Source: Anaerolineae bacterium
GTDB lineage: Bacteria > Chloroflexota > Anaerolineae > Aggregatilineales > Aggregatilineaceae
Direction of reading: 5' to 3'
NCBI GenBank assembly: GCA_016934195.1
Contig: JAFGTJ010000030.1
Coordinates: forward strand, 1 to 58,013
Length of the DNA: 58,013 bases
Both the position numbers and the translations under genes were made by a program. Under the pieces are notes generated by a model, which made no database searches, was not told where the DNA came from, and saw nothing but the letters and a program-made list of their open reading frames with translations. Shown here one piece after another: positions 3,981-26,685 of the stretch (position 1 is the stretch's first letter; each line of letters opens with the position of its first letter).

Positions 3981-5165
3981 CTACAGAATCAGCATGGCAA
4001 ACGACACCACATTCAGCACCAGCATCAGCACGATTCCGCCCGCTAACGCCAAACTGCGCAGATCATACCCTCCGCCCGCTGCCTGTATCTCAGCCGGAAT
4101 ATAGCGATAATACCCGGCGGCGCCGGTGGCCCCCGTCGCGGGCGGCGCGCCTATGACGCGCTGCGCGGGCGGCTGGCTGACAGATGGTAGACTCTCCGCC
4201 GAACCGTCATCATCAAATGACACATCGGCGCGCAACTGGGCCAACCCGTCATCTAACCAATTGGTAGACGGGGGTGAGTCTTCATCTTCAAGTTCAAAAA
4301 TCAGTTCTTCCGTCGCTTCAGGCATATCATCGTCGGTCACAAACAGCGATCCAAACGCATCACCGGCAACCGGCAGCGACGTATCATCTACCATAAAATC
4401 AGAGGCCGGGCTATCCCAGGCTCCAGGCGCACTATCAAACACATCACTACTGTCAAACGGCTCTGCCGGGCTATCCGGTTGGGTAAACGCATCGAATCCG
4501 CCGTCTATAGGTGCACTTGCCGGTGCGCCGGGTGGCGCGCTTTCCGCCGCACCGCCCCGCAGACCCAGGCCCGCCATCCAATCATCATATTCATCGTCCG
4601 TGAGCATATCGTCCACTTGCTGCCCACTACCATGATAAGAAGCCACACCAGCGCCCGCTTGAGGTCCCCAATCCATACTGGTCGCGGGCGCGGCAAATAC
4701 ATCAAATTCCGAGTCTGCGCCCTGGTTGGCGGCGGCAGATAACCAATCCTCAGCATCATCCACAGCACCGGCACCAGTATCAGCCCCTGAACCGGCCTGC
4801 GTGCCCGCGAAGTCAAACGGCGTTGAGTCACCGGCAGGCGGCGGTGCGACAGGCGGCGGCGCAGCAGAAGAATCGGGCACAGACGGCGAGGACGTTGAAG
4901 CCGCCGCGTCCTGCCCGGCACCCTGCTGGTTGATCGCGTTGAGTCGCTGGCGCGCCTGCTGGTTATTGGGATTCAGCAAAATTACATTTTCGAGGCAAAT
5001 TTTCTGATCTTCCGGCGTTTCAGCGACAGCGCTCATCCACAACCAGGCAATTTCATGCCGCTGATCCAACTCAATCGCCTGTTCCAACAAACCGCGCGCT
5101 TCCTGCCGCTGGCCGTTACGAAACGCCTCGGCTGCCTGTCTCACCAGATCGTCAACGTCCGACAT
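3981..5165 (-). CDS. tail-anchored protein: N-terminal TPR-like helix pair, long acidic/Pro-Ala low-complexity region, C-terminal TM helix
   Basis: Start re-set to the ATG at 5163-5165, preceded by GGAGGAATC. The N-terminus (AEAFRNGQRQEARGLLEQAIELDQRHEIAWLWMS...NPNNQQARQRL) is TPR-like. The middle is D/A/P/S-rich. The end (LALAGGIVLMLVLNVVSFAMLIL) is a TM segment. Confidence 0.6.
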   Translation of the reverse strand: MSDVDDLVRQAAEAFRNGQRQEARGLLEQAIELDQRHEIAWLWMSAVAETPEDQKICLENVILLNPNNQQARQRLNAINQQGAGQDAAASTSSPSVPDSSAAPPPVAPPPAGDSTPFDFAGTQAGSGADTGAGAVDDAEDWLSAAANQGADSEFDVFAAPATSMDWGPQAGAGVASYHGSGQQVDDMLTDDEYDDWMAGLGLRGGAAESAPPGAPASAPIDGGFDAFTQPDSPAEPFDSSDVFDSAPGAWDSPASDFMVDDTSLPVAGDAFGSLFVTDDDMPEATEELIFELEDEDSPPSTNWLDDGLAQLRADVSFDDDGSAESLPSVSQPPAQRVIGAPPATGATGAAGYYRYIPAEIQAAGGGYDLRSLALAGGIVLMLVLNVVSFAMLIL

Positions 5166-5246
5166 GATTCCTCCAGAAAAAACACGTACACTGGCAGAAT
5201 GTCTACCAGTGTACGTTATCATACCACATCCAACCCGGTACAGAAA

Positions 5247-7216: not shown

Positions 7217-8392
7217 TTACTGTTCGTCGATGATTCCCATATCAATCGCTTCGTCCCAACCCACTCGTTGGCCTTCATCGTGCGAAATCGAGTCGGCCAG
7301 ATCGCTCAACGCATCGGTATCAAACATGCTCTCGGCCAGTTCCTCGTCAATGGCCTGACCAAATAACGCATCAGCGTCAAAGTCGGCCACTGGGTCCATA
7401 CCCGCCGGTTCCGGCTGCGCGTCGAACATCGCCTCAAGCGAGGCGGCGGAAGTGCCTTGCTTTTGGGATTGGCGCGAAGGCTTAGCCGCCGGAACATCAT
7501 CAGCTTTCTGTTTCCTGGCCGCAGGCCGGGATTCCGCTTTCGGAGCCGGGGCTGGCTCAACTTTCTTGATCGAATACGCCGCTTCGCCCAACATTTCGAT
7601 GATCTGGTCAGCAGTGCGGCGGCCATACAACATCACCGGGGCCATTGCGCGCCGGTTGGTTCCTTCAAACACCAGGCACAGAATATAATGGACGCCCAAT
7701 GCTAACCCGTACACGTCCAACCGCTCGCCGTTATAATAATGCATCGTCCAGGCATGACCGCCGACCAACGGGCCAATTTCCGCCGAACGCGCGAACATGG
7801 GACCCAAAACAGCGGCCAGAGTCTCCCGGTCAATATAGCCGGTTGCGCCACGCTCGATCAGGACCCGGCCCGTGCGATCCGCCAGGATAATACTCATGGC
7901 CCCGGCATCGCGCATCAGGTCTACTACCATCGTAGCCAATTCGCCGGTATCAACCGCCGGAACCGGTCCCAGGTCAACAGCAGGACCGGCAGCCGGAGCT
8001 TCGTCAGCGACAGCGGCCTCACCGTCCAGCGCGATACGCAGCCCGCGCACGAACGGCTCGCCTACCGGTCGCATGAAATACTGAAATGCGGCGTCTCCCA
8101 GAACGGACACGTCAACGGTTGGATCATCCTCTTGAGCCAGAACGATGACAGGCGTTGCCAGAAACTCACGACTGACTCGAGTCGCTAATTCGAATCCGTT
8201 CATCATACCGGGGATCGTATAGGCCGTTACCATCAAGTCGATCTCTGATCTTGAGACTTCGGCCAGCGCATCGTCCGAGGAAGGCACCTCGATCAAAATG
8301 CACGGGCGGTTGAGCAGCGCTAACGCGCCACGTACAATCGGCGCAACATCACGAGCAGCATCGACGACAACAATTCGGGGGATCGAGGGCAT
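7217..8392 (-). CDS. degenerate receiver (pseudo-REC) + Roadblock/LC7-like domain + Pro/Lys-rich and acidic tail
   Basis: The N-terminus has a CheY-like pattern but the catalytic positions are substituted: VVVDAARD, DLMVTAYTIPG, VLAQ and MRP replace DD, D, T and K. The middle (MVVDLMRDAGAMSIILADRTGRVLIERG...AVLGPMFARSAEIG) resembles Roadblock/LC7. The C-terminus is PAPAPK-rich, then D/E-rich. Confidence 0.75.
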   Translation of the reverse strand: MPSIPRIVVVDAARDVAPIVRGALALLNRPCILIEVPSSDDALAEVSRSEIDLMVTAYTIPGMMNGFELATRVSREFLATPVIVLAQEDDPTVDVSVLGDAAFQYFMRPVGEPFVRGLRIALDGEAAVADEAPAAGPAVDLGPVPAVDTGELATMVVDLMRDAGAMSIILADRTGRVLIERGATGYIDRETLAAVLGPMFARSAEIGPLVGGHAWTMHYYNGERLDVYGLALGVHYILCLVFEGTNRRAMAPVMLYGRRTADQIIEMLGEAAYSIKKVEPAPAPKAESRPAARKQKADDVPAAKPSRQSQKQGTSAASLEAMFDAQPEPAGMDPVADFDADALFGQAIDEELAESMFDTDALSDLADSISHDEGQRVGWDEAIDMGIIDEQ

Positions 8393-8798
8393 AGTCCATT
8401 ACCTGCTTAGTGTGATCAACAACCATCATTATACCGGGTTTGGATGGGAGTGAATACCATCCTGCTTCTATCCTAACGAATTTACCAAAGGTTGCAACCG
8501 GGTTAGGATTGTATTTTGACCCAATTTGCCGCCAGAAGCAACACATTCATGACAAATTCACATCAGTTACCCCCACAATGTCGCTATCAACCGCCGGGGA
8601 CGAATAAGACCATCGAGCGCATCATTAAGGGTGTGAAAGCATATATCGACCCAAACAGCATATAGGATACGCGCAGACCGCCAAAACCTGGGATAAAAAT
8701 ATTCGTTGCTGCTGTCTTACACCCCACACACTTAACTCATTGCTACCATATTTATATCATGAATTCGCCCGTGAGAGCACCGGGCACATTATCATTTG

Positions 8799-8827
8799 TT
8801 GACTCCGACCAGTGCATATGCTATCAT
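8799..8827 (+). promoter_or_regulatory. sigma70-like promoter candidate (TTGACT-17 nt-TATCAT) upstream of the Roadblock gene
   Basis: TTGACT at 8799-8804, an exact 17-nt spacer, and TATCAT at 8822-8827. It lies ~100 nt upstream of the ATG at 8928, inside a 535-bp lower-GC divergent spacer. Confidence 0.35.
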
Positions 8828-8927
8828 GCAGGCGGCATTATTAAGCAAACCAACAATCTGTATTAATCCACGATGCATTCACACATCTGCTGTCTGCCAA
8901 ATCCCGCACGGGAAAGGAGCACGATTT

Positions 8928-9299
8928 ATGGCAAAGTCGCGGACGGAGTTAATGGTTGATCGCCTGCGCGATCTGCAAGCCGGTACGCCTGATATTGAAG
9001 CCTCGGCGGTCGTCAGCGTGGATGGGCTGATTATGGCCTCGTCGCTACCGGCGGGCGTGGAAGAAGACCGAGTATCGGCCATGTCTGCTGCGATGCTTTC
9101 GCTCGGCGAGCGCATCGCCAGCGAATTAGGACGCGGCTTGCTGGATCAGGTATATATTCGCGGTGACAGCGGCTTCGTGATCCTGATGTCCGTTGGTGAA
9201 GAAGCCGTGCTAACAGCGCTGGTTCATGAAAATGCTAAGCTCGGGTTGGTCTTCCTTGATATGAGACGCGCCGCCGACGATCTCGAAAATCTGGTATGA
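8928..9299 (+). CDS. Roadblock/LC7 (MglB/CvnB-like) domain protein
   Basis: Start re-set to the ATG at 8928, preceded by GGAAAGGAG. The 123-aa product (MAKSRTELMVDRLRDLQAGTPDIEASAVVSVDGLIMASSLP...FVILMSVGEEAVLTALV) has the typical Roadblock/LC7 length and pattern. Confidence 0.85.
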   Translation: MAKSRTELMVDRLRDLQAGTPDIEASAVVSVDGLIMASSLPAGVEEDRVSAMSAAMLSLGERIASELGRGLLDQVYIRGDSGFVILMSVGEEAVLTALVHENAKLGLVFLDMRRAADDLENLV

Positions 9300-9341
9300 T
9301 TTTTCGATTATCTCCAACCATTCCACCTGATGATACACAAA

Positions 9342-9388
9342 CGACGGGGAGCAAGGCACCGGGCCTTAACCTCCCCGTCGCTCTTTTT
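9342..9388 (+). terminator. rho-independent terminator / possible pyrG leader attenuator
   Basis: 10-bp perfect stem CGACGGGGAG (9342-9351) / CTCCCCGTCG (9371-9380). The loop contains an inner AAGGC/GCCTT pairing. CTCTTTTT follows the stem. It sits between the Roadblock stop (9299) and the pyrG start (9418). Confidence 0.5.
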
Positions 9389-9399
9389 AACCGCAGTAA

Positions 9400-11076
<1,677 letters not shown>

Positions 11077-11087
11077 CGGATAACACC

Positions 11088-12125
11088 ATGTCCCTGATTA
11101 ATTACATCCAGACCCTGCCCAAAGCTGAATTACACGTTCACCTCGAAGGTTCCGTGCAACCGGACACGCTGCTCGAATTGGCGCAGCAAAACGGGGTTAC
11201 GCTGCCAGCCGCATCAGTGGACGGTTTGCGTGACTGGTACACCTACCGCGATTTCGATCATTTCATCGAAATCTTCTTCACGATCTGTCAGTGTCTGCAA
11301 ACGCCGGACGATTTCGCCCGCATCGCCTACGAATACGGGCGCAGCATGGCCGAAAACAACATCCGGTACGCCGAAGTCACCTGGACACCGTATACTCACG
11401 TCAACGAGCGGCTTTCCTGGGAAGCACTGCTGGCCGGAATCAATGCGGGGCGCGCGCGGGCCGAGCAGGAATGGGGCGTGATCATGCGCTGGATTACTGA
11501 TATTTCGCGGAACATGGTGGACAGCGCCGCCACAGTAACCGAGTGGGCGACTTCTCCTGAAGCGCGCGAAGGCGGCGTCGTGGCGCTTGGTCTGGGCGGG
11601 CCGGAGGTCAACTTTCCGCCCGAACTGTTCACCGATGCGTTTCAGATCGCCGTAGATCGGGGCCTGCACAGCAATCCCCACGCCGGAGAAACCATCGGGC
11701 CGGAAAGCATCTGGGGCGCGATCCGGGCGTTAAAAGCGGAACGGATCGGGCACGGGGTACGCGCCATCGAAGACCCGGCGCTGATCGCATATCTGGCCGA
11801 ACACCAGATTCCGCTGGAAGTGAATCCCACCAGCAACATTTGCCTGGGCGTGTTCCCGTCCTATGCTGAACATTCGCTGCGCCGGTTGGTAGACGCTGGA
11901 GTCTGCGTGACGATCAACTCAGACGATCCGGCGCTGTTCAACACCACGCTCACCGACGAATACCGCCACGCGATTGAGGACTGCGACCTGAGTCTGCAAG
12001 AACTGGAAACCACCGCGCTAAATGCCGTCCGCGCCAGCTATTTACCAGAAGACGACAAAGCCGCCATGCTCGCCACATTCCAGGCCGAATATAGCAGACT
12101 TCGTGCGCAATATGACCTATCATGA
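11088..12125 (+). CDS. add: adenosine deaminase
   Basis: LPKAELHVHLEGS metal-binding motif, HAGE, and SDDPALF near the C-terminus. Only 11 nt downstream of pyrG. Confidence 0.93.
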   Translation: MSLINYIQTLPKAELHVHLEGSVQPDTLLELAQQNGVTLPAASVDGLRDWYTYRDFDHFIEIFFTICQCLQTPDDFARIAYEYGRSMAENNIRYAEVTWTPYTHVNERLSWEALLAGINAGRARAEQEWGVIMRWITDISRNMVDSAATVTEWATSPEAREGGVVALGLGGPEVNFPPELFTDAFQIAVDRGLHSNPHAGETIGPESIWGAIRALKAERIGHGVRAIEDPALIAYLAEHQIPLEVNPTSNICLGVFPSYAEHSLRRLVDAGVCVTINSDDPALFNTTLTDEYRHAIEDCDLSLQELETTALNAVRASYLPEDDKAAMLATFQAEYSRLRAQYDLS

Positions 12126-12345
12126 AGGAGTGAATCCGGTGGATGACATAGAAACACTGTGGGCCAATATCCTGAGCCGTGACGCGGACCGAATCCGTGC
12201 CACCTGGGACGCACTCAACGCGGAGGAAAAAACCGCCGTCCGCGCTCACCTGACTCGGATGGTGACAGAACCGGATTGGAGCGAACCACAGCGCATCTCG
12301 GCCCAGGCTGCGCTGGACGCGCTGGAAAACGGTGAGGGGGAATAA
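12112..12345 (+). CDS. small hypothetical protein (77 aa)
   Basis: ORF overlapping the add stop. ATG at 12112, or an alternative GTG at 12139 that follows AAGGAG. No recognisable domain. Coding status rests on its position in the pyrG-add unit and a non-antisense composition. Confidence 0.45.
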   Translation: MTYHEGVNPVDDIETLWANILSRDADRIRATWDALNAEEKTAVRAHLTRMVTEPDWSEPQRISAQAALDALENGEGE

Positions 12346-12397: not shown

Positions 12398-12928
12398 CTA
12401 AGCGTTGCGGCGGCGGTCGATCAACTCGATGATCTGGAGCAGGACCTGCCGCACGCTCGATTTCTGGGTCGCCACACACGGCATGACCGTAATGTCCTCG
12501 CCCGGATTCATCCGGCGGCGCACCTCGGCCAGACTCACCGCGCCATCCAGGTCGGTTTTGTTTGCCACCACCAGATACGGCACATCATGGAAGCCGGAAA
12601 ACAGTTGGATCAGGTCTGCCGCATCGGGGAACGAGGGCGGGTCGGTGCTGTCCACCAACACAACAAACCCGTTCATTTCCCGTGCCAGAATTTCCCACAT
12701 GAAATCAAACCGCGCCTGACCGGGCGTGCCATTCAGGTGCAAAATCTTCCCATCCAGTTCCACACGGCCATAATCCATCGCCACCGTTGTTTCGGATTTA
12801 ATGCCGCGATCCTCGGTCGTAATTTTTCGTTCCGTTGTGACCACCGCGATATCCGAAATGGTGCTGATAAAGGCCGTCTTGCCCGAATTAAACGGGCCGG
12901 TGACAATCACTTTATACAGATTAGACAC
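12398..12928 (-). CDS. small GTPase, CvnD/MglA-type (COG2229-like)
   Basis: G1 GPFNSGKT, TTVAMDYGR (G2 region), G3 GTPGQARFDFMW, G4 ANKTDL. The TTVAMD.GR and GTPGQ.RF.FMW strings match my memory of Streptomyces CvnD proteins. Start placed at GTG 12926-12928, 5 nt after GGAGG; the track's TTG at 12940 is an alternative. Confidence 0.88.
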   Translation of the reverse strand: MSNLYKVIVTGPFNSGKTAFISTISDIAVVTTERKITTEDRGIKSETTVAMDYGRVELDGKILHLNGTPGQARFDFMWEILAREMNGFVVLVDSTDPPSFPDAADLIQLFSGFHDVPYLVVANKTDLDGAVSLAEVRRRMNPGEDITVMPCVATQKSSVRQVLLQIIELIDRRRNA

Positions 12929-12948
12929 AAACCCCTCCAACTTCCAGC

Positions 12949-13698
12949 CTACTCGTCGGCCTCATCCTTGTGCTTGAAATCGACAAAACGATACCCTACG
13001 CCGCGCTCGGTCAGAATATACCTGGGATCGGACGGGTCCTGCTCGATCTTTTCCCGTAAGTAATTGACGTACAGGCGGACGTAGTGGGTTTCGTCACGAT
13101 ATTCGTATCCCCACACTTTCGCTAACAACTGCTCGTGCGGCACCGTCCACCCGGCATTTTCGATCAGGTGATAGAGCAGCCGGTACTCGGTAGGCCGCAG
13201 CTTGATATGATTTCCCTGGACGATCACTTCCCGCCGGTTAAAATCCACGCTCAGCCGGTCGTCAATGGTCAAAACGGCCTGTTCCGGCGAAGCGCTAGGC
13301 ATATCGGCACGGCGCAGCACGGCCCGTAACCGGCTGGACAGTTCGCGCGAACCAAACGGCTTGGTGATGTAATCGTCCGCGCCCAATTCCAGGCCGTACA
13401 CTTTATCGTCTTCCTCACCCTTCGCCGTGAGCATAATCACCGGCAGATTCGAGAACTCGCGCAGCATTCGCAGCGTCTCGAACCCGTCCAACTCCGGCAT
13501 CATCACGTCCAGCAGCACCAGGTCCGGCAGTTGGGTTCGGATCACTTCCAGGGCTTTGACCCCGGTATGGGCTTCCAACACTTGAAACCCCTCAAGCTCC
13601 AGGTTCATACGAATGAAGCCAATCATGCGCGGCTCATCATCCACCACCAGGATACGTTTGACATCACGGGGGACAGCACGCGGCGGTTTACCCGACAT
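12949..13698 (-). CDS. OmpR/PhoB-family response regulator (intact receiver + winged helix)
   Basis: [31 protein letters not shown]; C-terminal [12 protein letters not shown]...GVGYRF. No histidine kinase gene anywhere in the window. Confidence 0.92.
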
Positions 13699-13746
13699 AG
13701 CTCAACCTTTTCCGTTCCATATACAGTCCAACCCACGACCCATACG

Positions 13747-13986
13747 CTAATCGACGAACGGGCCTTCGATTTCCTCTTCATCACCGGACGGCATGACTTC
13801 AATGAAGTTGATACGCCACCAGGGAACAATGATCGTTTGCACTTCGGGCAGAACATAGTGCAGGTCTTTGCCATCACGACGGCGCGGGTTTATACAATAG
13901 AGCACCTGATCGGCGGGTGCTGGCAATTCCTCGGTTTCGGCCATAATCGCTTCTTCGTTTGCAACATGAATCAACAGCGTATACAT
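13747..13986 (-). CDS. 79-aa hypothetical protein with acidic C-terminal tail
   Basis: ATG preceded by GAGGTAA at a good spacing. Sits 9 nt after the FHA gene stop and 48 nt before the regulator gene. No domain recognised. Confidence 0.5.
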   Translation of the reverse strand: MYTLLIHVANEEAIMAETEELPAPADQVLYCINPRRRDGKDLHYVLPEVQTIIVPWWRINFIEVMPSGDEEEIEGPFVD

Positions 13987-13995
13987 TCCATTACC

Positions 13996-14496
13996 TCATT
14001 TGAAAAAGATGTGCAGAGCCAGCTTGCCCAAACGGATCTCGTCACCATCACGCAGCACACGCGGCTGGTTCGGGATCAGGCGCTGGCCGTTCAGGTGCGT
14101 GCCATTGGTACTTCCCAGGTCCACCAGCGTGAGCGTATCCTCTCCCCGCCGGATAAACGCATGACGGCGCGAAACACCCTGCTCTGCTCCGCCATACGAG
14201 CCAAGATCGAGATCGGGCAGCAAGCCGGTATTGGTATCTGACCGTCCCACCAGAATCTCATCTTTGGCTTCAAGAACGACCGGAGTTTCATGGTCGCGTA
14301 CATGAATGACAATCGATGAGCCACGATCAAAGCGGGCGGTCCCCCACGTCACGCGGCCCTGAAAATTCGCCTGATCCGCATCAATCAGCTTGCTGGTCGC
14401 CAACACTTCCCGCTCGCCCACAAACGGGTGCCCGCATTCTTCACAGAACAAAACGCCTTCGCGGTTGTCGTGCGCGCAGTACGGACACGTCCTCAT
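13996..14496 (-). CDS. zinc-ribbon + FHA domain protein
   Basis: N-terminal CPYC...CEEC ribbon. C-terminal FHA signature ILVGRSD...VSRRHAFI...LVDLGSTNGTHLNGQRL. The start overlaps the upstream stop (TGATG at 14494-14498). Confidence 0.9.
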   Translation of the reverse strand: MRTCPYCAHDNREGVLFCEECGHPFVGEREVLATSKLIDADQANFQGRVTWGTARFDRGSSIVIHVRDHETPVVLEAKDEILVGRSDTNTGLLPDLDLGSYGGAEQGVSRRHAFIRRGEDTLTLVDLGSTNGTHLNGQRLIPNQPRVLRDGDEIRLGKLALHIFFK

Positions 14497-15980
14497 CAGT
14501 CTTCCGCCCCAGGTTCAGGTAAAGCCAGCAGCCGCCGGGTGCCAAACTTCAAGGTCTTGCGTCCTTCCTCGGACAGCATGTGGGTCTTGGACACACGACG
14601 CGCCTCCACAATTGCCATCTGGGCCAGGTCTTCTTGACCGGCAGCTAACAGCCGCGTTGCCAGATTTTCCAGTCGCCGGGTGGCCTCGACCACATTACCA
14701 CTCGTGGCGGCAGCCTCGGCCTTCTGCTGCATCCGGTACAGTGTCAATTTGCCCAGCGCATCCAAAATAGCCATCGGTGGTTCCTCTGGCGTCGGATCGC
14801 GGGCAATTTCAACCGAAATGTCGCTCAGAACCTTGTACCCCTGACGCTCAATGCCCAGAATATCGCCGGTCACATCCAGGCGGGCGACCGTCCGAAACCC
14901 GGTACGGGCGCTCGGCGGCATTTGCATCTGGAGCAGCACCGAAATCGGGCGGCTGAATTCCAGCGATCCGATAGGAATCGGCTGCGGACTGATCTCGACC
15001 GGTTGGGGACTGGGCTGTAACTTAAAAACCGATTCGAGCGACACATCGGCATCAGGCGCAGTCGAAAGACGCATCCGTTCACCGAAGGCCGATCCCAGGC
15101 TGCGCACCCGGTCATTCAGAAAACCCACAACCGCCGCTGGTGAGTTGATATAGGCCGATGCGCCGCCCGTGCGTGAGGCCAACGAATCGAGAAAGGCGTC
15201 ATTCCATTCCTCGCCAATACCCATTGCGCTGATCCCGATGCCTTCTTTATTGGCCTTATCAGCCAATTCAAGACATTGGTCTTCATCACCGAATGTCCGG
15301 CCATCGGTGAGCAGGATTACATGATTGACCAGGCGCGGACCAAGATAACGACGGCATTGATCAACCCCGGCCTTCAACCCGTGATAAATCTCGGTTCCGC
15401 CGTCGGCGCGCATCATGCTCACCATCGTTCGCAATCCGGCCTTATCGGTGACAGGAGCCGACGGGATCAACACATCTGCACGATCACTAAAGCTCACGAC
15501 GGATAGCACATCATCCGGGGATAACTGTTCGATGATCTGGCGACCCGCAATCTTGACTTTATCCAGCCGCATACCTTTCATCGACGTGCTGCGATCCAAT
15601 ACCAACACCAAGTTCAATCGCGCTTCTTTGGTCTGCTGCTGGGTATCGTGCCGCATGGGCACGATCTCCAACAACAGGTAAATTACCTGGGGTTCATCCA
15701 GCGCATTCAGAACCCGTTTGCTCGGCGTCACCCGCAGCGTGAAGTAGTTTGGCTCATCCCGATATTTACGCCGGGACGTGTCATAACGGACCCGCTGACG
15801 CGAGTTCCCCAGTATCTCATATGCCGCTGCGATATCGCGGAACTGGATATCAGCCCCTTCATTCGGGTTGGCGTCGGGATGGAACCGGCGAGCCGCGACT
15901 CGATAGGCTTCGCGAATATCCTCTTGAGTCGCCTCAGGGGGTATACCCAAAATTGCATACAGGTTGCGCGATGCGTCCAT
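14496..15980 (-). CDS. J-domain (DnaJ-like) + von Willebrand factor A domain protein
   Basis: N-terminal NLYAILGIPPEATQEDIREAYRVAARRFHPDANP, with the HPD tripeptide. vWA MIDAS string LVLDRSTSM (DxSxS), then ADGGTEI and LLTDGRTFGD. About 200 aa at the C-terminus are unassigned. Confidence 0.88.
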   Translation of the reverse strand: MDASRNLYAILGIPPEATQEDIREAYRVAARRFHPDANPNEGADIQFRDIAAAYEILGNSRQRVRYDTSRRKYRDEPNYFTLRVTPSKRVLNALDEPQVIYLLLEIVPMRHDTQQQTKEARLNLVLVLDRSTSMKGMRLDKVKIAGRQIIEQLSPDDVLSVVSFSDRADVLIPSAPVTDKAGLRTMVSMMRADGGTEIYHGLKAGVDQCRRYLGPRLVNHVILLTDGRTFGDEDQCLELADKANKEGIGISAMGIGEEWNDAFLDSLASRTGGASAYINSPAAVVGFLNDRVRSLGSAFGERMRLSTAPDADVSLESVFKLQPSPQPVEISPQPIPIGSLEFSRPISVLLQMQMPPSARTGFRTVARLDVTGDILGIERQGYKVLSDISVEIARDPTPEEPPMAILDALGKLTLYRMQQKAEAAATSGNVVEATRRLENLATRLLAAGQEDLAQMAIVEARRVSKTHMLSEEGRKTLKFGTRRLLALPEPGAED

Positions 15981-15988
15981 GAAGCGCC

Positions 15989-17038
15989 TTAACCCGGAAC
16001 ATAAACGAGAATGACCGTAATATTATCCGGCCCGCCTCGATCATTTGCCATTTGAACCAGCGTGTTACATGCGGTTTGCGGATCGCTGTGCTGAGATACC
16101 GTGCCCAGAATCACGTCTTCCGAAACCATGTTCCACAACCCATCGCTGCACAATAAGAGCCGGGACCGGGGATGCAAACGGCGCGTAATCGCGTCCACGT
16201 CCAACGAGTCGCTCTGCCCAATGGCGCGGTACAACACGTTGCGCTGAGGGTGATCCGGCACCTCTTCCGGCGTTAATTGATCCAGCTCAATCAAGCGCTG
16301 CACCAACGTATGATCGCGGGTCACTTGTTCAATACCTTCATCCGTGATCAGGTACGCACGGCTGTCGCCCACATGCGCGATATACGCCAGGTCCCCCACA
16401 ATCACGGCAGCGGTGACGGTCGTGCCACCTTCGGGAATCGCCTCCGTCACCGCATCGTTGGCTTCTTGCACAGCGGCGCGCAGCGTATCGGAGATAGAAG
16501 GCTGGTCCGGGTCGTTCATTTCAAGCCTGAGCATGGAAGTCAATATCTGGTTGAGCACATACTGGGTCACAATCCGAACCGTGATGGATGAAGCACGTTC
16601 ACCTTCCTGGTGACCGCCCATACCATCCGCGACCACGAACAACCCGAAGTCGGGCACGTCATCGTTGCTGGTACTGGTAGCCACTATCCCCATCATGGCA
16701 TCCTGATTATTGCCGCGCTGCATCCCCACATCGCTTAACTGACCAAATTGCAAGCGTTCGCCCGGCTTGGGAATAACCGTTTCAAGCGGCGGCAAAGGGC
16801 GGGTTCCTAACTCGGCCAAATCGTTTTTTTCATCAGGGGGCACCAGCGGCGTATCAGGCGCGACTACCTGAACCGCCTCAACCTCCACACCCGCCTTTGA
16901 TTGGACCGGAACTTCAACCACCGGCTCAGGCGGCGCGCTAGGGGCAGTATCTTCATGCGTGATGATAATGCCATCTTCTTTTTCAGAGGGGACACTGGAG
17001 TTATCGGGCAAACCCAGCACACGGCGTAAGAAATCCAT
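15989..17038 (-). CDS. PP2C-family Ser/Thr phosphatase
   Basis: About 100 aa of Pro/Val-rich linker, then DVGMQRGNNQDA, VVADGMGGHQEGERAS, LLCSDGLW, GGPDNITVILV. Confidence 0.92.
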   Translation of the reverse strand: MDFLRRVLGLPDNSSVPSEKEDGIIITHEDTAPSAPPEPVVEVPVQSKAGVEVEAVQVVAPDTPLVPPDEKNDLAELGTRPLPPLETVIPKPGERLQFGQLSDVGMQRGNNQDAMMGIVATSTSNDDVPDFGLFVVADGMGGHQEGERASSITVRIVTQYVLNQILTSMLRLEMNDPDQPSISDTLRAAVQEANDAVTEAIPEGGTTVTAAVIVGDLAYIAHVGDSRAYLITDEGIEQVTRDHTLVQRLIELDQLTPEEVPDHPQRNVLYRAIGQSDSLDVDAITRRLHPRSRLLLCSDGLWNMVSEDVILGTVSQHSDPQTACNTLVQMANDRGGPDNITVILVYVPG

Positions 17039-17057
17039 AGGTGTTTTCTCCGGCAGG

Positions 17058-18965
17058 TCACGCTTTCAGCGCGTAAACTTGATGATCCATAGACCCAATG
17101 TACACAATGCCGTCATGGACAGCAGGGGACGAGGTGATTTTGCCCTTTGTCTTATAACTCCAGCGCAGTTGGCCCGTTTTAGCATCCAGGCAATAAACTT
17201 GTTTATCAACTCCACCGAAATACACCGCACCTTCCACAAACACCGGCGACGAGGTGATCTGGCCTTCGGTTTCAAAGTGCCAGCGCTCTTTACCGCTAGC
17301 GGCTTCGATGGCGTACAGGCTTCCATCAACCGACCCAATATAAATCCGGTCATCGCCGTACACGGGGGAAGACACAATCGGCTTATTGGTGCGCAGCGCC
17401 CAGGCTTTCCAACCCCGCGTGATATCGAGGGCGTAGACGTGCCAATCCATTGAGCCGAAGAATACCAGTCCTTCGTGTGCGGTCGGGGATGACGACACAC
17501 CCCGTTTGGCCTTAAACCGCCAGACAACCTGCCCTGACAGATCGATCCCCGCCACATACCCGGATTCCTGACCAACAACGATCAATTCGCCGGTAACGAG
17601 GGGGCGGGTACGAATGGGATCGCCGCCTTCCCACACCCACTGGATTCTGCCTGTTGCCAGCCGGATCGCATAGAGATTGCCATCATCGCTGCCGAAAAAT
17701 ACATGCCCGTGCATGACCGTCGGGGAAGACTGAACCGGCCCCTTGGTCGCCACAGACCAGGACAATTGGCCGGTACGCATATCGACCGCATACAGCGAAT
17801 GATCCAGCGAGCCGTATAACACCAGATTCTCATCCTCGGCCACCGCAGGTGAGGACACAATCCCCTGATCAGTGGGATATTTCCAGCGGAAGGAACCGTC
17901 ACTGATATTTATGGCATACAGGTTGTTATCTTGCGCGCCGACATATAACACGCCCTTGTGAACGACCGGCGAGGAACGAATTTCATCCTCACAGGCAAAT
18001 GTCCACACCGGCTGAATCCCTTCCTCGGACCATTCAGCCACAGTTTCATCGGAAACCGTATCGGCGCTCACAAACGGCATACCAACCACGACCTGGGGCT
18101 TCTGGAGCTTTTGCAGCGCATCGCGCATCGCCGATGCATTGGGATACCGGTCATCCGGCTTAAAGCTCAGCGCGCGCATGATCACGGCATCCAGGTCCGG
18201 CGACACATTCGAATTCGCCTCACGAATGGGACGCTCGGCAAACGTAAAGGGCGGCTCAAGACGCGGATCGCGCCGGGTCAAGATGTGGTGAATAGTCGCC
18301 CCCACCCCATACACATCACTGGCGGGACTGGCCTCGCCCCGGTACTGCTCCGGCGCTGAATAGCCCTCTGTGCCAATCATGGTCCCTTTTTGGCCTGCCT
18401 GGAAAATCTTGGCGATGCCAAAGTCCACCAACCGGATGCGATCATGTTGATCGATCATGATATTGGACGGCTTCACATCTCGGAAGATGATGGGTTCCGG
18501 CTCCTGCTGGTGCAGATAGCCCAATACATCACAAATTTCCACCGCCCACTGTAACACCATCTCGACCGGGAGCATATCTTGAGTCGAATTGATGATTTGT
18601 TCCAGGTCACGCCCGTTAATGTATTCCATCACCAGGTAGGCGCGCGTTTTGCTGGGGAAATAGTCGTAGATTTCGGGCACCGCCGGGTGATTCAGCGAGG
18701 CCAGCATATCCGACTCGCGCTCGAATGTTTTCAGGGTCATTTCACGCATGGCCTGATCGGTCGTCAGATTCAACATTTCCTTGACCGCGACATGCCGGAC
18801 CACGTTGGGAAAACGCAAGTCCCTGGCCTGGTAGACGGACCCCATACCGCCAACGCCGATCACGCCTGTGATGCGATAACGCCCTTGCAGCACAGCCCCC
18901 GGCTGAAGCGCATTGTCGCCTGGTTGTTCAGGCATGTTTCTGGCGAACTTCTGTGTATCGACCAT
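17058..18965 (-). CDS. Ser/Thr protein kinase with C-terminal PQQ-like beta-propeller repeats
   Basis: GVGGMGSVY, VAVKEM, FRDVKPSNIMI (F replaces the usual H of HRD), VDFGIAK, GTEGYSAPE. About 8 repeats of the ...LYA(I/V/L)D... PQQ-propeller type follow. No TM segment. Start re-set to the ATG at 18965 (AGAGG upstream); the track's start at 18974 is a TTG. Confidence 0.93.
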   Translation of the reverse strand: MVDTQKFARNMPEQPGDNALQPGAVLQGRYRITGVIGVGGMGSVYQARDLRFPNVVRHVAVKEMLNLTTDQAMREMTLKTFERESDMLASLNHPAVPEIYDYFPSKTRAYLVMEYINGRDLEQIINSTQDMLPVEMVLQWAVEICDVLGYLHQQEPEPIIFRDVKPSNIMIDQHDRIRLVDFGIAKIFQAGQKGTMIGTEGYSAPEQYRGEASPASDVYGVGATIHHILTRRDPRLEPPFTFAERPIREANSNVSPDLDAVIMRALSFKPDDRYPNASAMRDALQKLQKPQVVVGMPFVSADTVSDETVAEWSEEGIQPVWTFACEDEIRSSPVVHKGVLYVGAQDNNLYAINISDGSFRWKYPTDQGIVSSPAVAEDENLVLYGSLDHSLYAVDMRTGQLSWSVATKGPVQSSPTVMHGHVFFGSDDGNLYAIRLATGRIQWVWEGGDPIRTRPLVTGELIVVGQESGYVAGIDLSGQVVWRFKAKRGVSSSPTAHEGLVFFGSMDWHVYALDITRGWKAWALRTNKPIVSSPVYGDDRIYIGSVDGSLYAIEAASGKERWHFETEGQITSSPVFVEGAVYFGGVDKQVYCLDAKTGQLRWSYKTKGKITSSPAVHDGIVYIGSMDHQVYALKA

Positions 18966-19097
18966 CGAGTACAACCTCTACTTCATCCAAATTGAGCGGG
19001 AGCGTGGGGCACTTAGCGCCTGGATGTCAACCTGTTTTGTGGTTATTATAGTGTCGCTATAGGGTTCTCGCAATTGCACTGCGAGAGGAATAATACC

Positions 19098-25710: not shown

Positions 25711-26082
25711 CTACAGTCCCAGGACCTCGCGTACCCGTGCGATGAGCACATCAGGCGTAGTGGGCTTGGTCAGGTATTCGACCGCGCCGATATCCATGCC
25801 GGTCTGCTGGCTGATCGCATCCACCCGCGCTGTCAGGAAAATAACCGGAATCGAACTGAGAGCCGGATCATCCTTCAACCGCCGCAAGACGTCAAAGCCA
25901 TTGAAATCAGCCATCATAACATCGAGCAAAATCAGGTCCACGTTTTTCTGTTGATCCAGGTACTCCAACGCCGCGCTGCCGGAGTACACTTCATGCGTCT
26001 CGAACCCGTCGCGGGTCAGCGCCATCCGCAGCAAATTACACAACAACGGGTCGTCGTCCACAATTAAAATTTTCCCTGACAT
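25711..26082 (-). CDS. single-domain CheY-like response regulator (intact receiver)
   Basis: ILIVDDDP, LILLDVMMADFNG, IFLTAR, YLTKP. 123 aa with no output domain. Confidence 0.9.
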   Translation of the reverse strand: MSGKILIVDDDPLLCNLLRMALTRDGFETHEVYSGSAALEYLDQQKNVDLILLDVMMADFNGFDVLRRLKDDPALSSIPVIFLTARVDAISQQTGMDIGAVEYLTKPTTPDVLIARVREVLGL

Positions 26083-26091
26083 TACCCCTCC

Positions 26092-26685
26092 TCACTCCAC
26101 GTCGTTATAGGTCCAGTAGCGGTTAACGAAGAAATTCCAAATCATCACAATCCACACCGCGAAGAATTGTGCGATATTGGTGCCCAAACGACTCACTGAC
26201 GTATCGGACAATGAATCCACGATTCCCAACGACTCAAACATGTCCGTGCCGATATCACCAAAGGGTCCAAATGTAGTCCTGACCCACACCAGGCGAAACA
26301 ACAGTCCGGCCAGGCTCACAATAAAAAATTGCACCCACTGGCGGCGGATTGACCGGGAACGCGAGTCGGGATAGGTCCAATACCGGTTCCACACAAAATT
26401 ACTGGATACCGCCGAGACAAATGCACACCCGGTCGCCAACGCTACTTTGGCATTCACATAATCGCCGCTGGGTTGCAAAACCGTCGCCTGAAGCAAGTTC
26501 AGCACACCAAAGTCGATGATCGCGCCGAGAATGCCGACGGTGGCAAACTTGAGAAACCGTTCGAGTTCCTTGCCTCTCTGCCCGCCGACGCGCGCGCTGA
26601 TACGCAGAATCACTTCGTTCCACCAATCAAACGGGTAGGTATACCAGCGGCTGGATACCGCTTTTGAAGTTGTTTCAGACGTCAT
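26092..26685 (-). CDS. GtrA-family membrane protein
   Basis: FLKFATVGILGAIIDFGVLNLL and a second FVWNRYWTY / FFVNRYWTY pair, typical of GtrA-like 4-TM proteins. Confidence 0.85.
   Translation of the reverse strand: MTSETTSKAVSSRWYTYPFDWWNEVILRISARVGGQRGKELERFLKFATVGILGAIIDFGVLNLLQATVLQPSGDYVNAKVALATGCAFVSAVSSNFVWNRYWTYPDSRSRSIRRQWVQFFIVSLAGLLFRLVWVRTTFGPFGDIGTDMFESLGIVDSLSDTSVSRLGTNIAQFFAVWIVMIWNFFVNRYWTYNDVE

Follow-up and report, generated by a model that had tools for sequence, protein, structure and literature searches.

A degenerate receiver-Roadblock fusion protein and a divergent Roadblock gene near an MglA-family GTPase gene in an Anaerolineae bacterium

We analysed a stretch of 58,013 nucleotides from an Anaerolineae bacterium (Chloroflexota; assembly GCA_016934195.1, contig JAFGTJ010000030.1), here called the window. 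Two of its genes diverge from a common spacer: one codes for a protein that joins a receiver to a Roadblock/LC7 domain and an acidic tail (the fusion), the other for a stand-alone Roadblock/LC7 protein (Robl). A gene for a small Ras-like GTPase of the MglA family is located nearby. The two Roadblock proteins probably help to control this GTPase, although the link is indirect and not universal.

The gene pair and its spacer

An original prediction, made from the sequence alone, had placed open reading frames (ORFs) of 391 and 123 amino acids on either side of a 535-bp spacer of lower GC content. Coordinates, sizes and divergent arrangement were all borne out (Table 1), as was the order of receiver, Roadblock domain, Pro/Lys-rich segment and acidic tail in the fusion (Pfam, AlphaFold2 and composition). 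The GC content of the spacer is 0.44-0.45, compared with ~0.58-0.62 in the adjoining coding sequence. A promoter-like sequence, TTGAC-N17-TATGCTATCATGCAGGCG, is located ~100 nt 5′ of Robl and is kept in approximately half of the related loci; a search of the whole window with Rfam at gathering thresholds found no RNA element in the spacer. Robl is co-directional with pyrG (CTP synthase) and add (adenosine deaminase) at 8799-12125 (+), and a scan to position 9500, just beyond the start of pyrG, showed no terminator-like site behind Robl.

Table 1. Positions of the fusion gene with its domains, the spacer, Robl and the GTPase gene in the window.
Feature	Position	Strand	Description
Fusion ORF	7217..8392	-	391 aa, ATG start; stop codon 7217-7219; pseudo-receiver/MglB-like Roadblock/linker/acidic tail
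Receiver, residues 1-130	8003..8392	-	CheY fold with degenerate site: D11 kept; A12, A57, A86, R108
Interdomain linker, residues 131-148	7949..8002	-	ends in conserved DLGPVP; pLDDT low at 132-134
MglB-type Roadblock/LC7 domain, residues 149-274	7571..7948	-	DRTG motif at 172-175
Disordered Pro/Ala/Lys-rich basic linker, residues 275-322	7427..7570	-	pLDDT <50; composition; sequence not conserved
Acidic tail, residues 323-391	7220..7426	-	motifs FDxDALFGQ; LFDxDxLxxLA; VGY/WDEAxDMGI; short helices predicted
Divergent spacer	8393..8927		535 bp, lower GC
Promoter-like site for Robl	8799-8827	+	TTGACT-17-TATCAT, extended -10
Robl, stand-alone Roadblock/LC7	8928..9299	+	123 aa; CvnB/archaeal type; VDGL motif; heads Robl-pyrG-add string
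MglA-family small GTPase	12398..12940	-	P-loop GPFNSGKT, G2 Thr-Thr, G3 GTPGQ, G4 NKTD; candidate partner

Domains and family of the fusion protein

The CheY-like fold proposed for the N-terminal part is supported by both Pfam and the structure model. Residues 7-111 match Response_reg (PF00072) with 35.5 bits, above the gathering threshold of 30.2, and the AlphaFold2 model, built from 32 homologues with a mean predicted local distance difference test score (pLDDT) of 80, shows a (beta-alpha)5 arrangement of five strands and five helices at residues 6-129 with pLDDT >90. The catalytic columns were read from a MAFFT alignment in which 116 full-length homologues were set against the window's two intact receivers. 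The acceptor position (A57) is occupied by Ala in 104 homologues, Val in six, Thr in four and Ser in two, and by Asp in none. At the equivalent of T87 (A86) there are 107 Ala, eight Gly and one Ser, the equivalent of K109 (R108) is Arg in all 116, and the equivalent of D13 (A12) is Asp in two. The sole Asp left in the acidic pocket is the equivalent of D12 (D11), retained in 111 of the 116. An independent alignment made with HMMER to the receiver of NtrC agrees, pairing D54 with A57, T82 with A86 and K104 with R108. The claim that every catalytic position is replaced thus holds for A12, A57, A86 and R108 but not for the first residue of the DD pair, D11, which is nearly invariant. Likewise, the acceptor is lost as predicted, but the residue in its place is A57 and not "A/T". 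The replacements of Thr by Ala and of Lys by Arg appear in both alignments, and neither alignment restores a phospho-acceptor Asp. Because its branch of the family has lost the phospho-acceptor pocket, the receiver of the window protein is not switchable by Asp phosphorylation.

Receivers of this kind are known. FrzS and AglZ have pseudo-receivers, and RitR-type proteins are controlled by Ser/Thr kinases. The fusion shares with these proteins a CheY fold without the acceptor Asp, which in them is a protein-interaction module; its output is a Roadblock domain, however, and not a coiled coil or a DNA-binding domain, and unlike in that comparison its own family includes relatives with intact receivers.

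The second domain falls short of the usual profile thresholds: on residues 155-242 Robl_LC7 of Pfam reaches 20.5 bits (threshold 23), and the NCBIfam model MglB reaches 20.7 bits on the fusion (cut-off 200). Although the Pfam score is sub-threshold, the proposed Roadblock/LC7-like core is upheld by the fold model, by Foldseek and by homology to MglB. Residues 149-272 are modelled with confidence as alpha-beta-beta-alpha-beta-beta-beta-alpha. All of the best 30 Foldseek matches in the PDB are MglB structures of T. thermophilus or M. xanthus (E ~1e-10, target TM-score 0.63-0.79), and phmmer aligns the fusion sequence to T. thermophilus MglB with E 6.5e-8. A profile of the family's Roadblock domain, made from 24 diverse members, matches M. 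xanthus MglB (E 3.7e-17) and T. thermophilus MglB (1e-15). As MglB is the only PDB family matched by this profile, the domain appears to be MglB-like specifically and not a generic Roadblock domain. Its likeness to MglB (PDB 3T1S, 6H5B) comprises the Roadblock fold including the third helix, specific sequence homology and the D-x-x-G motif, DRTG in the fusion, which aligns with the LIDRKG / LVDKNG motif of MglB.

The segments that follow differ strongly in charge. The Pro/Ala/Lys-rich residues 275-322 have a net charge of +5, and residues 323-391 one of -20 (21 Asp/Glu, one Lys/Arg). AlphaFold2 predicts disorder at residues 278-329 and four short helices in the tail (340-384, pLDDT ~60-80). 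Three tail motifs are kept family-wide. In the clade of the window protein (fusion ≥41% identity) the first is D-F-D-x-x-x-L, the second L-F-D-x-D-x-L and the third V-G-[YW]-D-E-A-x-D-M-G-I; of these, the last two take the forms F-W-D/E-x-A and L-S-x-E-E-A-x-x-L-G-L in distant members. Two members, P0360 and P0348, carry the tail module FWD...LSxEEAxxxGL two or three times, and this duplication suggests that the module is a repeatable, self-contained docking peptide.

MglB proteins with a D/E-rich C-terminal helix are a known class (PMC6785124). In these, the MglB dimer seats one MglA, and the C-terminal helix of one protomer enters a basic pocket of MglA formed by alpha5 and beta2 and promotes nucleotide exchange; the Glu-rich helix of RomR is able to replace it, and C-terminal extensions of this kind are found across all five MglA groups (PMC6785124). 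The fusion resembles this class in its helical, D/E-rich C-terminus behind a flexible segment. It differs from MglB in its additional N-terminal pseudo-receiver, in a linker of ~50 residues and a tail of 69 residues with three motifs instead of one short helix, and in not being adjacent to a group 1 MglA; it also forms a family of its own, in which a role as GTPase-activating protein (GAP) or guanine nucleotide exchange factor (GEF) is putative. In RomR a receiver is followed by a disordered region and then by an acidic alpha-helical C-terminus, which binds the Roadblock protein MglC and oligomerises (PMC10329633). Here the likeness is one of architecture only: receiver, disordered region and negatively charged alpha-helical C-terminus. 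RomR is without a Roadblock domain, and the receiver of the fusion is not specifically RomR-like in PDB searches and has Ala as acceptor residue, whereas RomR retains the acceptor Asp.

Close homologues of the fusion form 123 clusters at 90% identity, all of them full length and with all four segments, and those with a named source all come from Anaerolineae/Chloroflexota, including Aggregatilinea lenta. They are labelled only "response regulator", "CheY-like" or "hypothetical", apart from some automated JGI annotations that name both domains; the labels mention just the receiver because the Roadblock domain is slightly under the Pfam threshold. Altogether, the alignment has 23 invariant and 40 nearly invariant columns, among them R108 and the tail motifs. 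A search of residues 140-391 against 1.84 billion representative proteins gave 336 matches at E ≤ 1e-3, 122 of them at E ≤ 1e-10. Nearly all are 370-430 amino acids long with the match starting near residue 140, and the architecture is kept in more than 100 clusters at 50% identity. No canonical stand-alone MglB was recognisable among the best 150 matches, nearly all of which have the fusion architecture or are fragments of it.

Intact receivers do occur in this family. Among 107 full-length representatives, 35 have both D57 and K109, and in 28 the DDD[T/S]K set is complete; such receivers belong to the distant members (24-30% identity), in which Response_reg reaches 58-67 bits. The ~70 members nearest the window protein show the signature D-[P/A]-A-A-R instead. 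Since the distant members keep the intact DDD[T/S]K receiver, the window protein is, as judged from the alignments, a degenerate branch of a genuine Chloroflexota response-regulator family with Roadblock output. The original description as "RomR and MglB combined" is apt as an architectural resemblance, but the protein is better called a degenerate branch of this pre-existing receiver-Roadblock family. By its defining features the fusion belongs to neither the MglB nor the RomR family; in its likely mode of action it comes closest to an MglB that has a C-terminal helix, and in overall layout to RomR. Literature searches found no published description of receiver-Roadblock regulators.

Robl, the GTPase and their linkage in related genomes

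Robl had been called a canonical 123-aa Roadblock protein, and with 64 bits for Robl_LC7 it is one. Its nearest solved relatives are PDB 7F8M (unpublished; E 1e-27), Asgard Roadblock proteins and CvnB5 (E 3.6e-7), MglB following at just E 0.05. Robl is of a different Roadblock type from the domain in the fusion. An Asp-Gly pair, which Robl has in the form VDGL, is typical of MglBs coupled to group 2-5 MglA (Wuichet and Søgaard-Andersen). Across the clade Robl is 80-95% identical, exceeding pyrG (~80%).

The best PDB match of the GTPase is T. thermophilus MglA (E 6e-8). By published criteria its sequence places it in groups 2-5 of the MglA family, most likely in group 5. It is without an intrinsic Arg finger, a trait which together with GTPGQ it shares with group 5 and the conservon GTPase CvnD; from group 2 it differs in its G4 motif, which is canonical NKTD and not NxFD. 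In alpha5, K160 and R164 are invariant in 121 homologues and lie one helical turn apart. As alpha5 helps to form the basic pocket in the MglA/MglB precedent (PMC6785124), this is consistent with docking of an acidic helix. A motif scan found no other small GTPase in the window. The ORFs of 123 and 197 amino acids at 25711-26685 were considered as a second Roadblock/GTPase pair and rejected; they code for a CheY-like receiver and a GtrA protein.

The GTPase gene is the last of a seven-gene operon (12398-18974, -) in the order Pkinase with PQQ beta-propeller, PP2C, DnaJ-VWA, Zn-ribbon-FHA, 79-aa protein, OmpR response regulator and GTPase. Within it, the kinase gene occupies 17058-18974 and the FHA gene 13996-14496. 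This operon is kept in other Anaerolineae (L053, L056), in which the GTPase is 75% identical, and it is to this operon that the GTPase is tightly and widely linked. With a winged helix-turn-helix response regulator immediately before an MglA homologue, the arrangement is reminiscent of published "group 3" systems.

The likeness of Robl to the conservon protein CvnB (the match to CvnB5 and the Asp-Gly pair) does not extend to the gene arrangement. The Roadblock and GTPase genes are not adjacent, as pyrG and add part them, and neither a CvnA-type histidine kinase nor CvnC/DUF742 was matched: as originally noted, no HisKA/HATPase or DUF742 component was found among the scanned ORFs of the window. 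A conservon reading was therefore rejected.

Linkage was followed in a scan of species-representative genomes, which gave 46 loci (checked with tblastn; ±10 kb around each match). In the clade of the window protein a region of ~20 kb is syntenic, and the gene downstream of the fusion is that for formate-tetrahydrofolate ligase (FTHFS). In 22 species the fusion and Robl stand side by side in divergent orientation. Twenty-one species and the window have a divergent Robl with pyrG next in line; in L034 it is 8.5 kb away, and it is absent upstream of the fusion in L004, L014 and L019. In L004 a gene for 157 amino acids upstream of the fusion was considered as a hidden Roadblock gene and rejected, as it has only weak HAD-hydrolase matches. 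The adjacency of Robl and pyrG, found in all 21 syntenic species, is the tightest linkage of Robl. In metagenome loci centred on Robl, pyrG is directly downstream in 18 and a V4R/REC-GGDEF operon in ~23, the fusion is upstream only in L059, and a GTPase gene is nearby only in L058, L061 and L113.

A Robl 78% identical to that of the window heads an operon with V4R, REC-GGDEF and GT2 genes (L113, 790-5093; L084, 10001-12671). In L113 the operon goes on with genes for a DUF4388 protein and an MglA-like GTPase 49% identical to that of the window. That this type of Robl is generally operonic with a GTPase was rejected, since it applies to L113 only; at the long V4R-type loci L084, L120 and L129 a GTPase gene is lacking within 10 kb.

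Of the 22 syntenic species, 13 carry the GTPase gene. In the nine others (L001, which is A. lenta, L021, L022, L023, L027, L029, L032, L036 and L038) the response-regulator gene is directly followed by a small ORF, add or pyrG. This absence is most simply read as loss, because the outgroup Anaerolineae L053 and L056 have the GTPase at the same operon position, and several independent losses are suggested, because in a clustering on reference proteins the nine species are interspersed with GTPase-bearing ones. MglB and MglA genes have been called "coupled" when the former is within four genes of an MglA-family GTPase (PMC4316618). Counted from the fusion the GTPase gene comes fifth, and counted from Robl fourth, so that Robl is coupled in this sense, and no Roadblock gene in the window is nearer to the GTPase than these two.

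As physical linkage by itself could be inherited gene order, pairwise identities were compared between the 13 GTPase-bearing and the nine GTPase-lacking species by permutation of labels, phylogeny being ignored. The mean pairwise identity of the fusion is 0.611 among GTPase-bearing species, 0.502 among GTPase-lacking species and 0.509 between the groups; for Robl the respective values are 0.921, 0.846 and 0.856 (p ~2e-4 for each of the two proteins). Seven control neighbours (pyrG, response regulator, 79-aa protein, FHA, DnaJ-VWA, PP2C and FTHFS) differ by -0.048 to +0.021 (p 0.14-0.99). Relative to reference divergence, Robl evolves approximately twice as fast in the species without the GTPase (ratio 0.62 vs 0.30). 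This difference in conservation is the sole evidence that singles out the fusion and Robl, and it points to the GTPase.

Candidate role of the gene pair and alternative explanations

The fusion and Robl had been proposed as the missing Roadblock partners of the GTPase. In favour of this are the assignment of the GTPase to the MglA family, the lack of a closer Roadblock gene, the position of Robl within four genes and a conservation that tracks the presence of the GTPase. Several observations weigh against it. The nine syntenic species without the GTPase at the locus keep an intact fusion and Robl with conserved tails. A divergent pseudo-receiver clade (30-38% identity) is represented by 15 loci, none of which has a GTPase or stand-alone Roadblock gene within 10 kb of the fusion, and at six loci of intact-receiver members no kinase, GTPase or Roadblock gene is annotated (flanks of ~1-10 kb, three contigs being short). 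The D-x-x-G of the fusion's Roadblock domain is the pattern of MglBs paired with group 1 MglA, and the local GTPase is of group 2-5 type. The conservation difference extends over every segment of the fusion, the disordered linker included, and label permutation is blind to phylogeny. Because the difference covers all regions and the identity between groups is close to that within the GTPase-lacking group, it may reflect a separate history, or shared ancestry, of the fusion and Robl in the GTPase-bearing set.

A control of the GTPase by the two Roadblock proteins could work as follows. The Roadblock domain of the fusion would dimerise with itself or with Robl and, in the manner of MglB, offer a small Ras-like GTPase a platform. 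Docking would be the task of the tethered acidic helices; precedents are the D/E-rich helix at the C-terminus of MglB and the Glu-rich C-terminus of RomR, whose partner is a basic pocket of MglA or a Roadblock dimer. As Robl has no C-terminal extension, a heterodimer of the fusion and Robl would carry a single tail, matching the asymmetry of MglA-MglB2. The best candidate client in this genome would be the GTPase at 12398-12940. Myxococcus MglA is described in the literature to interact with the response regulators FrzS, AglZ and RomR. Since the Asp switch is dead, the regulatory input would probably come from the Ser/Thr kinase/PP2C/FHA system that shares the operon of the GTPase; such input is made plausible by the divergent clade, where, in 13 of 15 loci, the fusion is directly followed by a co-directional gene for a membrane Ser/Thr kinase (gap -10 to +225 nt). 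Dimerisation, GTPase binding and GAP/GEF activity are predictions, and we infer every function given here for the fusion. The chances of the combined picture, a dimer of the fusion (possibly with Robl) as GTPase platform with Ser/Thr kinase input, appear evenly balanced.

The kinase genes of the divergent clade also allow a different reading, in which the fusion is an adaptor of a Ser/Thr kinase pathway, as substrate or scaffold of a Hanks-type kinase and independent of the neighbouring GTPase. Aspartate-less receivers governed by Ser/Thr phosphorylation are known, and the Roadblock proteins MP1/p14 scaffold mitogen-activated protein kinases. The loss of the Asp switch calls for another input, the Pkinase/PP2C/FHA operon is ~5 kb from the fusion in the window, and the divergent-clade loci are those with neither a GTPase nor a Roadblock gene within 10 kb. 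In the clade of the window protein, however, FTHFS and no kinase follows the fusion, and the only kinase of the window is 29% identical to that of the divergent clade, in the catalytic domain alone. The specifically MglB-like output domain and the conservation that follows the GTPase also speak against this reading, which we regard as a serious but rather unlikely alternative. It does not exclude a function as GTPase platform, as the two are not mutually exclusive.

Alternatively, the neighbourhood might be no more than inherited gene order: the fusion would be an orphan MglB-like regulator whose client is encoded at an unlinked site, be it a group 1 MglA or another NTPase, and Robl would function with pyrG or other genes. 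The whole ~20-kb region is syntenic in the clade, Robl-pyrG adjacency is far broader than fusion-Robl adjacency, with the fusion upstream in just one of the Robl-centred metagenome loci, and both Roadblock genes persist in the nine species without the GTPase. The Roadblock domain of the fusion has the group 1 MglB motif, and 328 of 749 MglB homologues were orphans in a published census. On the other side, the difference in conservation is confined to the fusion and Robl and absent from the seven neighbours, and there is no second small GTPase within the 58-kb window. We consider inherited order to be improbable as the full explanation. That the fusion is a decaying relic, a response regulator without phosphorylation site drifting to a pseudogene, would agree with the missing catalytic residues and the weak Pfam scores, but is effectively refuted by conservation: more than 120 clusters at 90% identity keep the complete ORF with its 23 invariant and 40 nearly invariant columns, the replacement residues A57, A86 and R108 are themselves conserved, and the structure model is confident about the fold.

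Rag/Gtr GTPases and archaeal fusions of a G domain with Roadblock likewise have a Roadblock dimerisation domain C-terminal to an alpha/beta switch domain. Foldseek aligns ~300 columns of the fusion to RagA/RagC (E ~5e-8); the root mean square deviation is ~15 Å and therefore the domain arrangement is not comparable, and the N-terminus of the fusion is a receiver and not a P-loop G domain. A tentative extension, which we hold to be doubtful, is that the fusion family represents a two-component-style counterpart of the Rag-type switch-Roadblock combination. The receiver would gate an MglB-type GAP/GEF platform; the ancestral gate would be Asp phosphorylation, here rewired to a Ser/Thr kinase/FHA system or constitutive, and the platform an asymmetric, single-tailed heterodimer with Robl.

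If true, kinase signalling would be wired straight to a Ras-like GTPase in Chloroflexota. MglA-family GTPases are understood almost only from Myxococcus motility, and these Chloroflexota are filamentous and not known to be motile; at issue are the regulation of the much larger set of groups 2-5 and the role of hundreds of orphan MglBs. The family offers a testable case of an MglB-type platform fused to a signalling receiver, in a series from phosphorylatable to phosphorylation-dead, and the location of the fusion near an operon for Ser/Thr kinase, FHA, response regulator and GTPase could make it a tractable entry to both questions.

Some further neighbours were recorded. The four intact-receiver members L137, L140, L141 and L142 are located directly downstream of an opp-type (oligopeptide) ABC transporter operon, which is probably synteny, and no histidine kinase was found beside the intact-receiver relatives at the six loci. 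In the divergent clade (L037, L039-L046, L049-L052) a gene for a NUDIX hydrolase precedes the fusion in six loci. The 79-aa protein of the GTPase operon (13747-13986, -) has no Pfam or NCBIfam match; its gene is located between FHA and OmpR at all syntenic loci and also in those outgroup operons that were checked (44-79% identity). A small ORF of ~75 amino acids without Pfam match is located downstream of add/pyrG (12118-12345, +) and was found by tblastn in most related loci (35-67%). Finally, a protein of 413 amino acids (3981-5222, -) with N-terminal TPR, a long acidic Pro/Ala/Asp-rich low-complexity region and a hydrophobic C-terminus is conserved downstream of FTHFS in the clade (27-39% identity).

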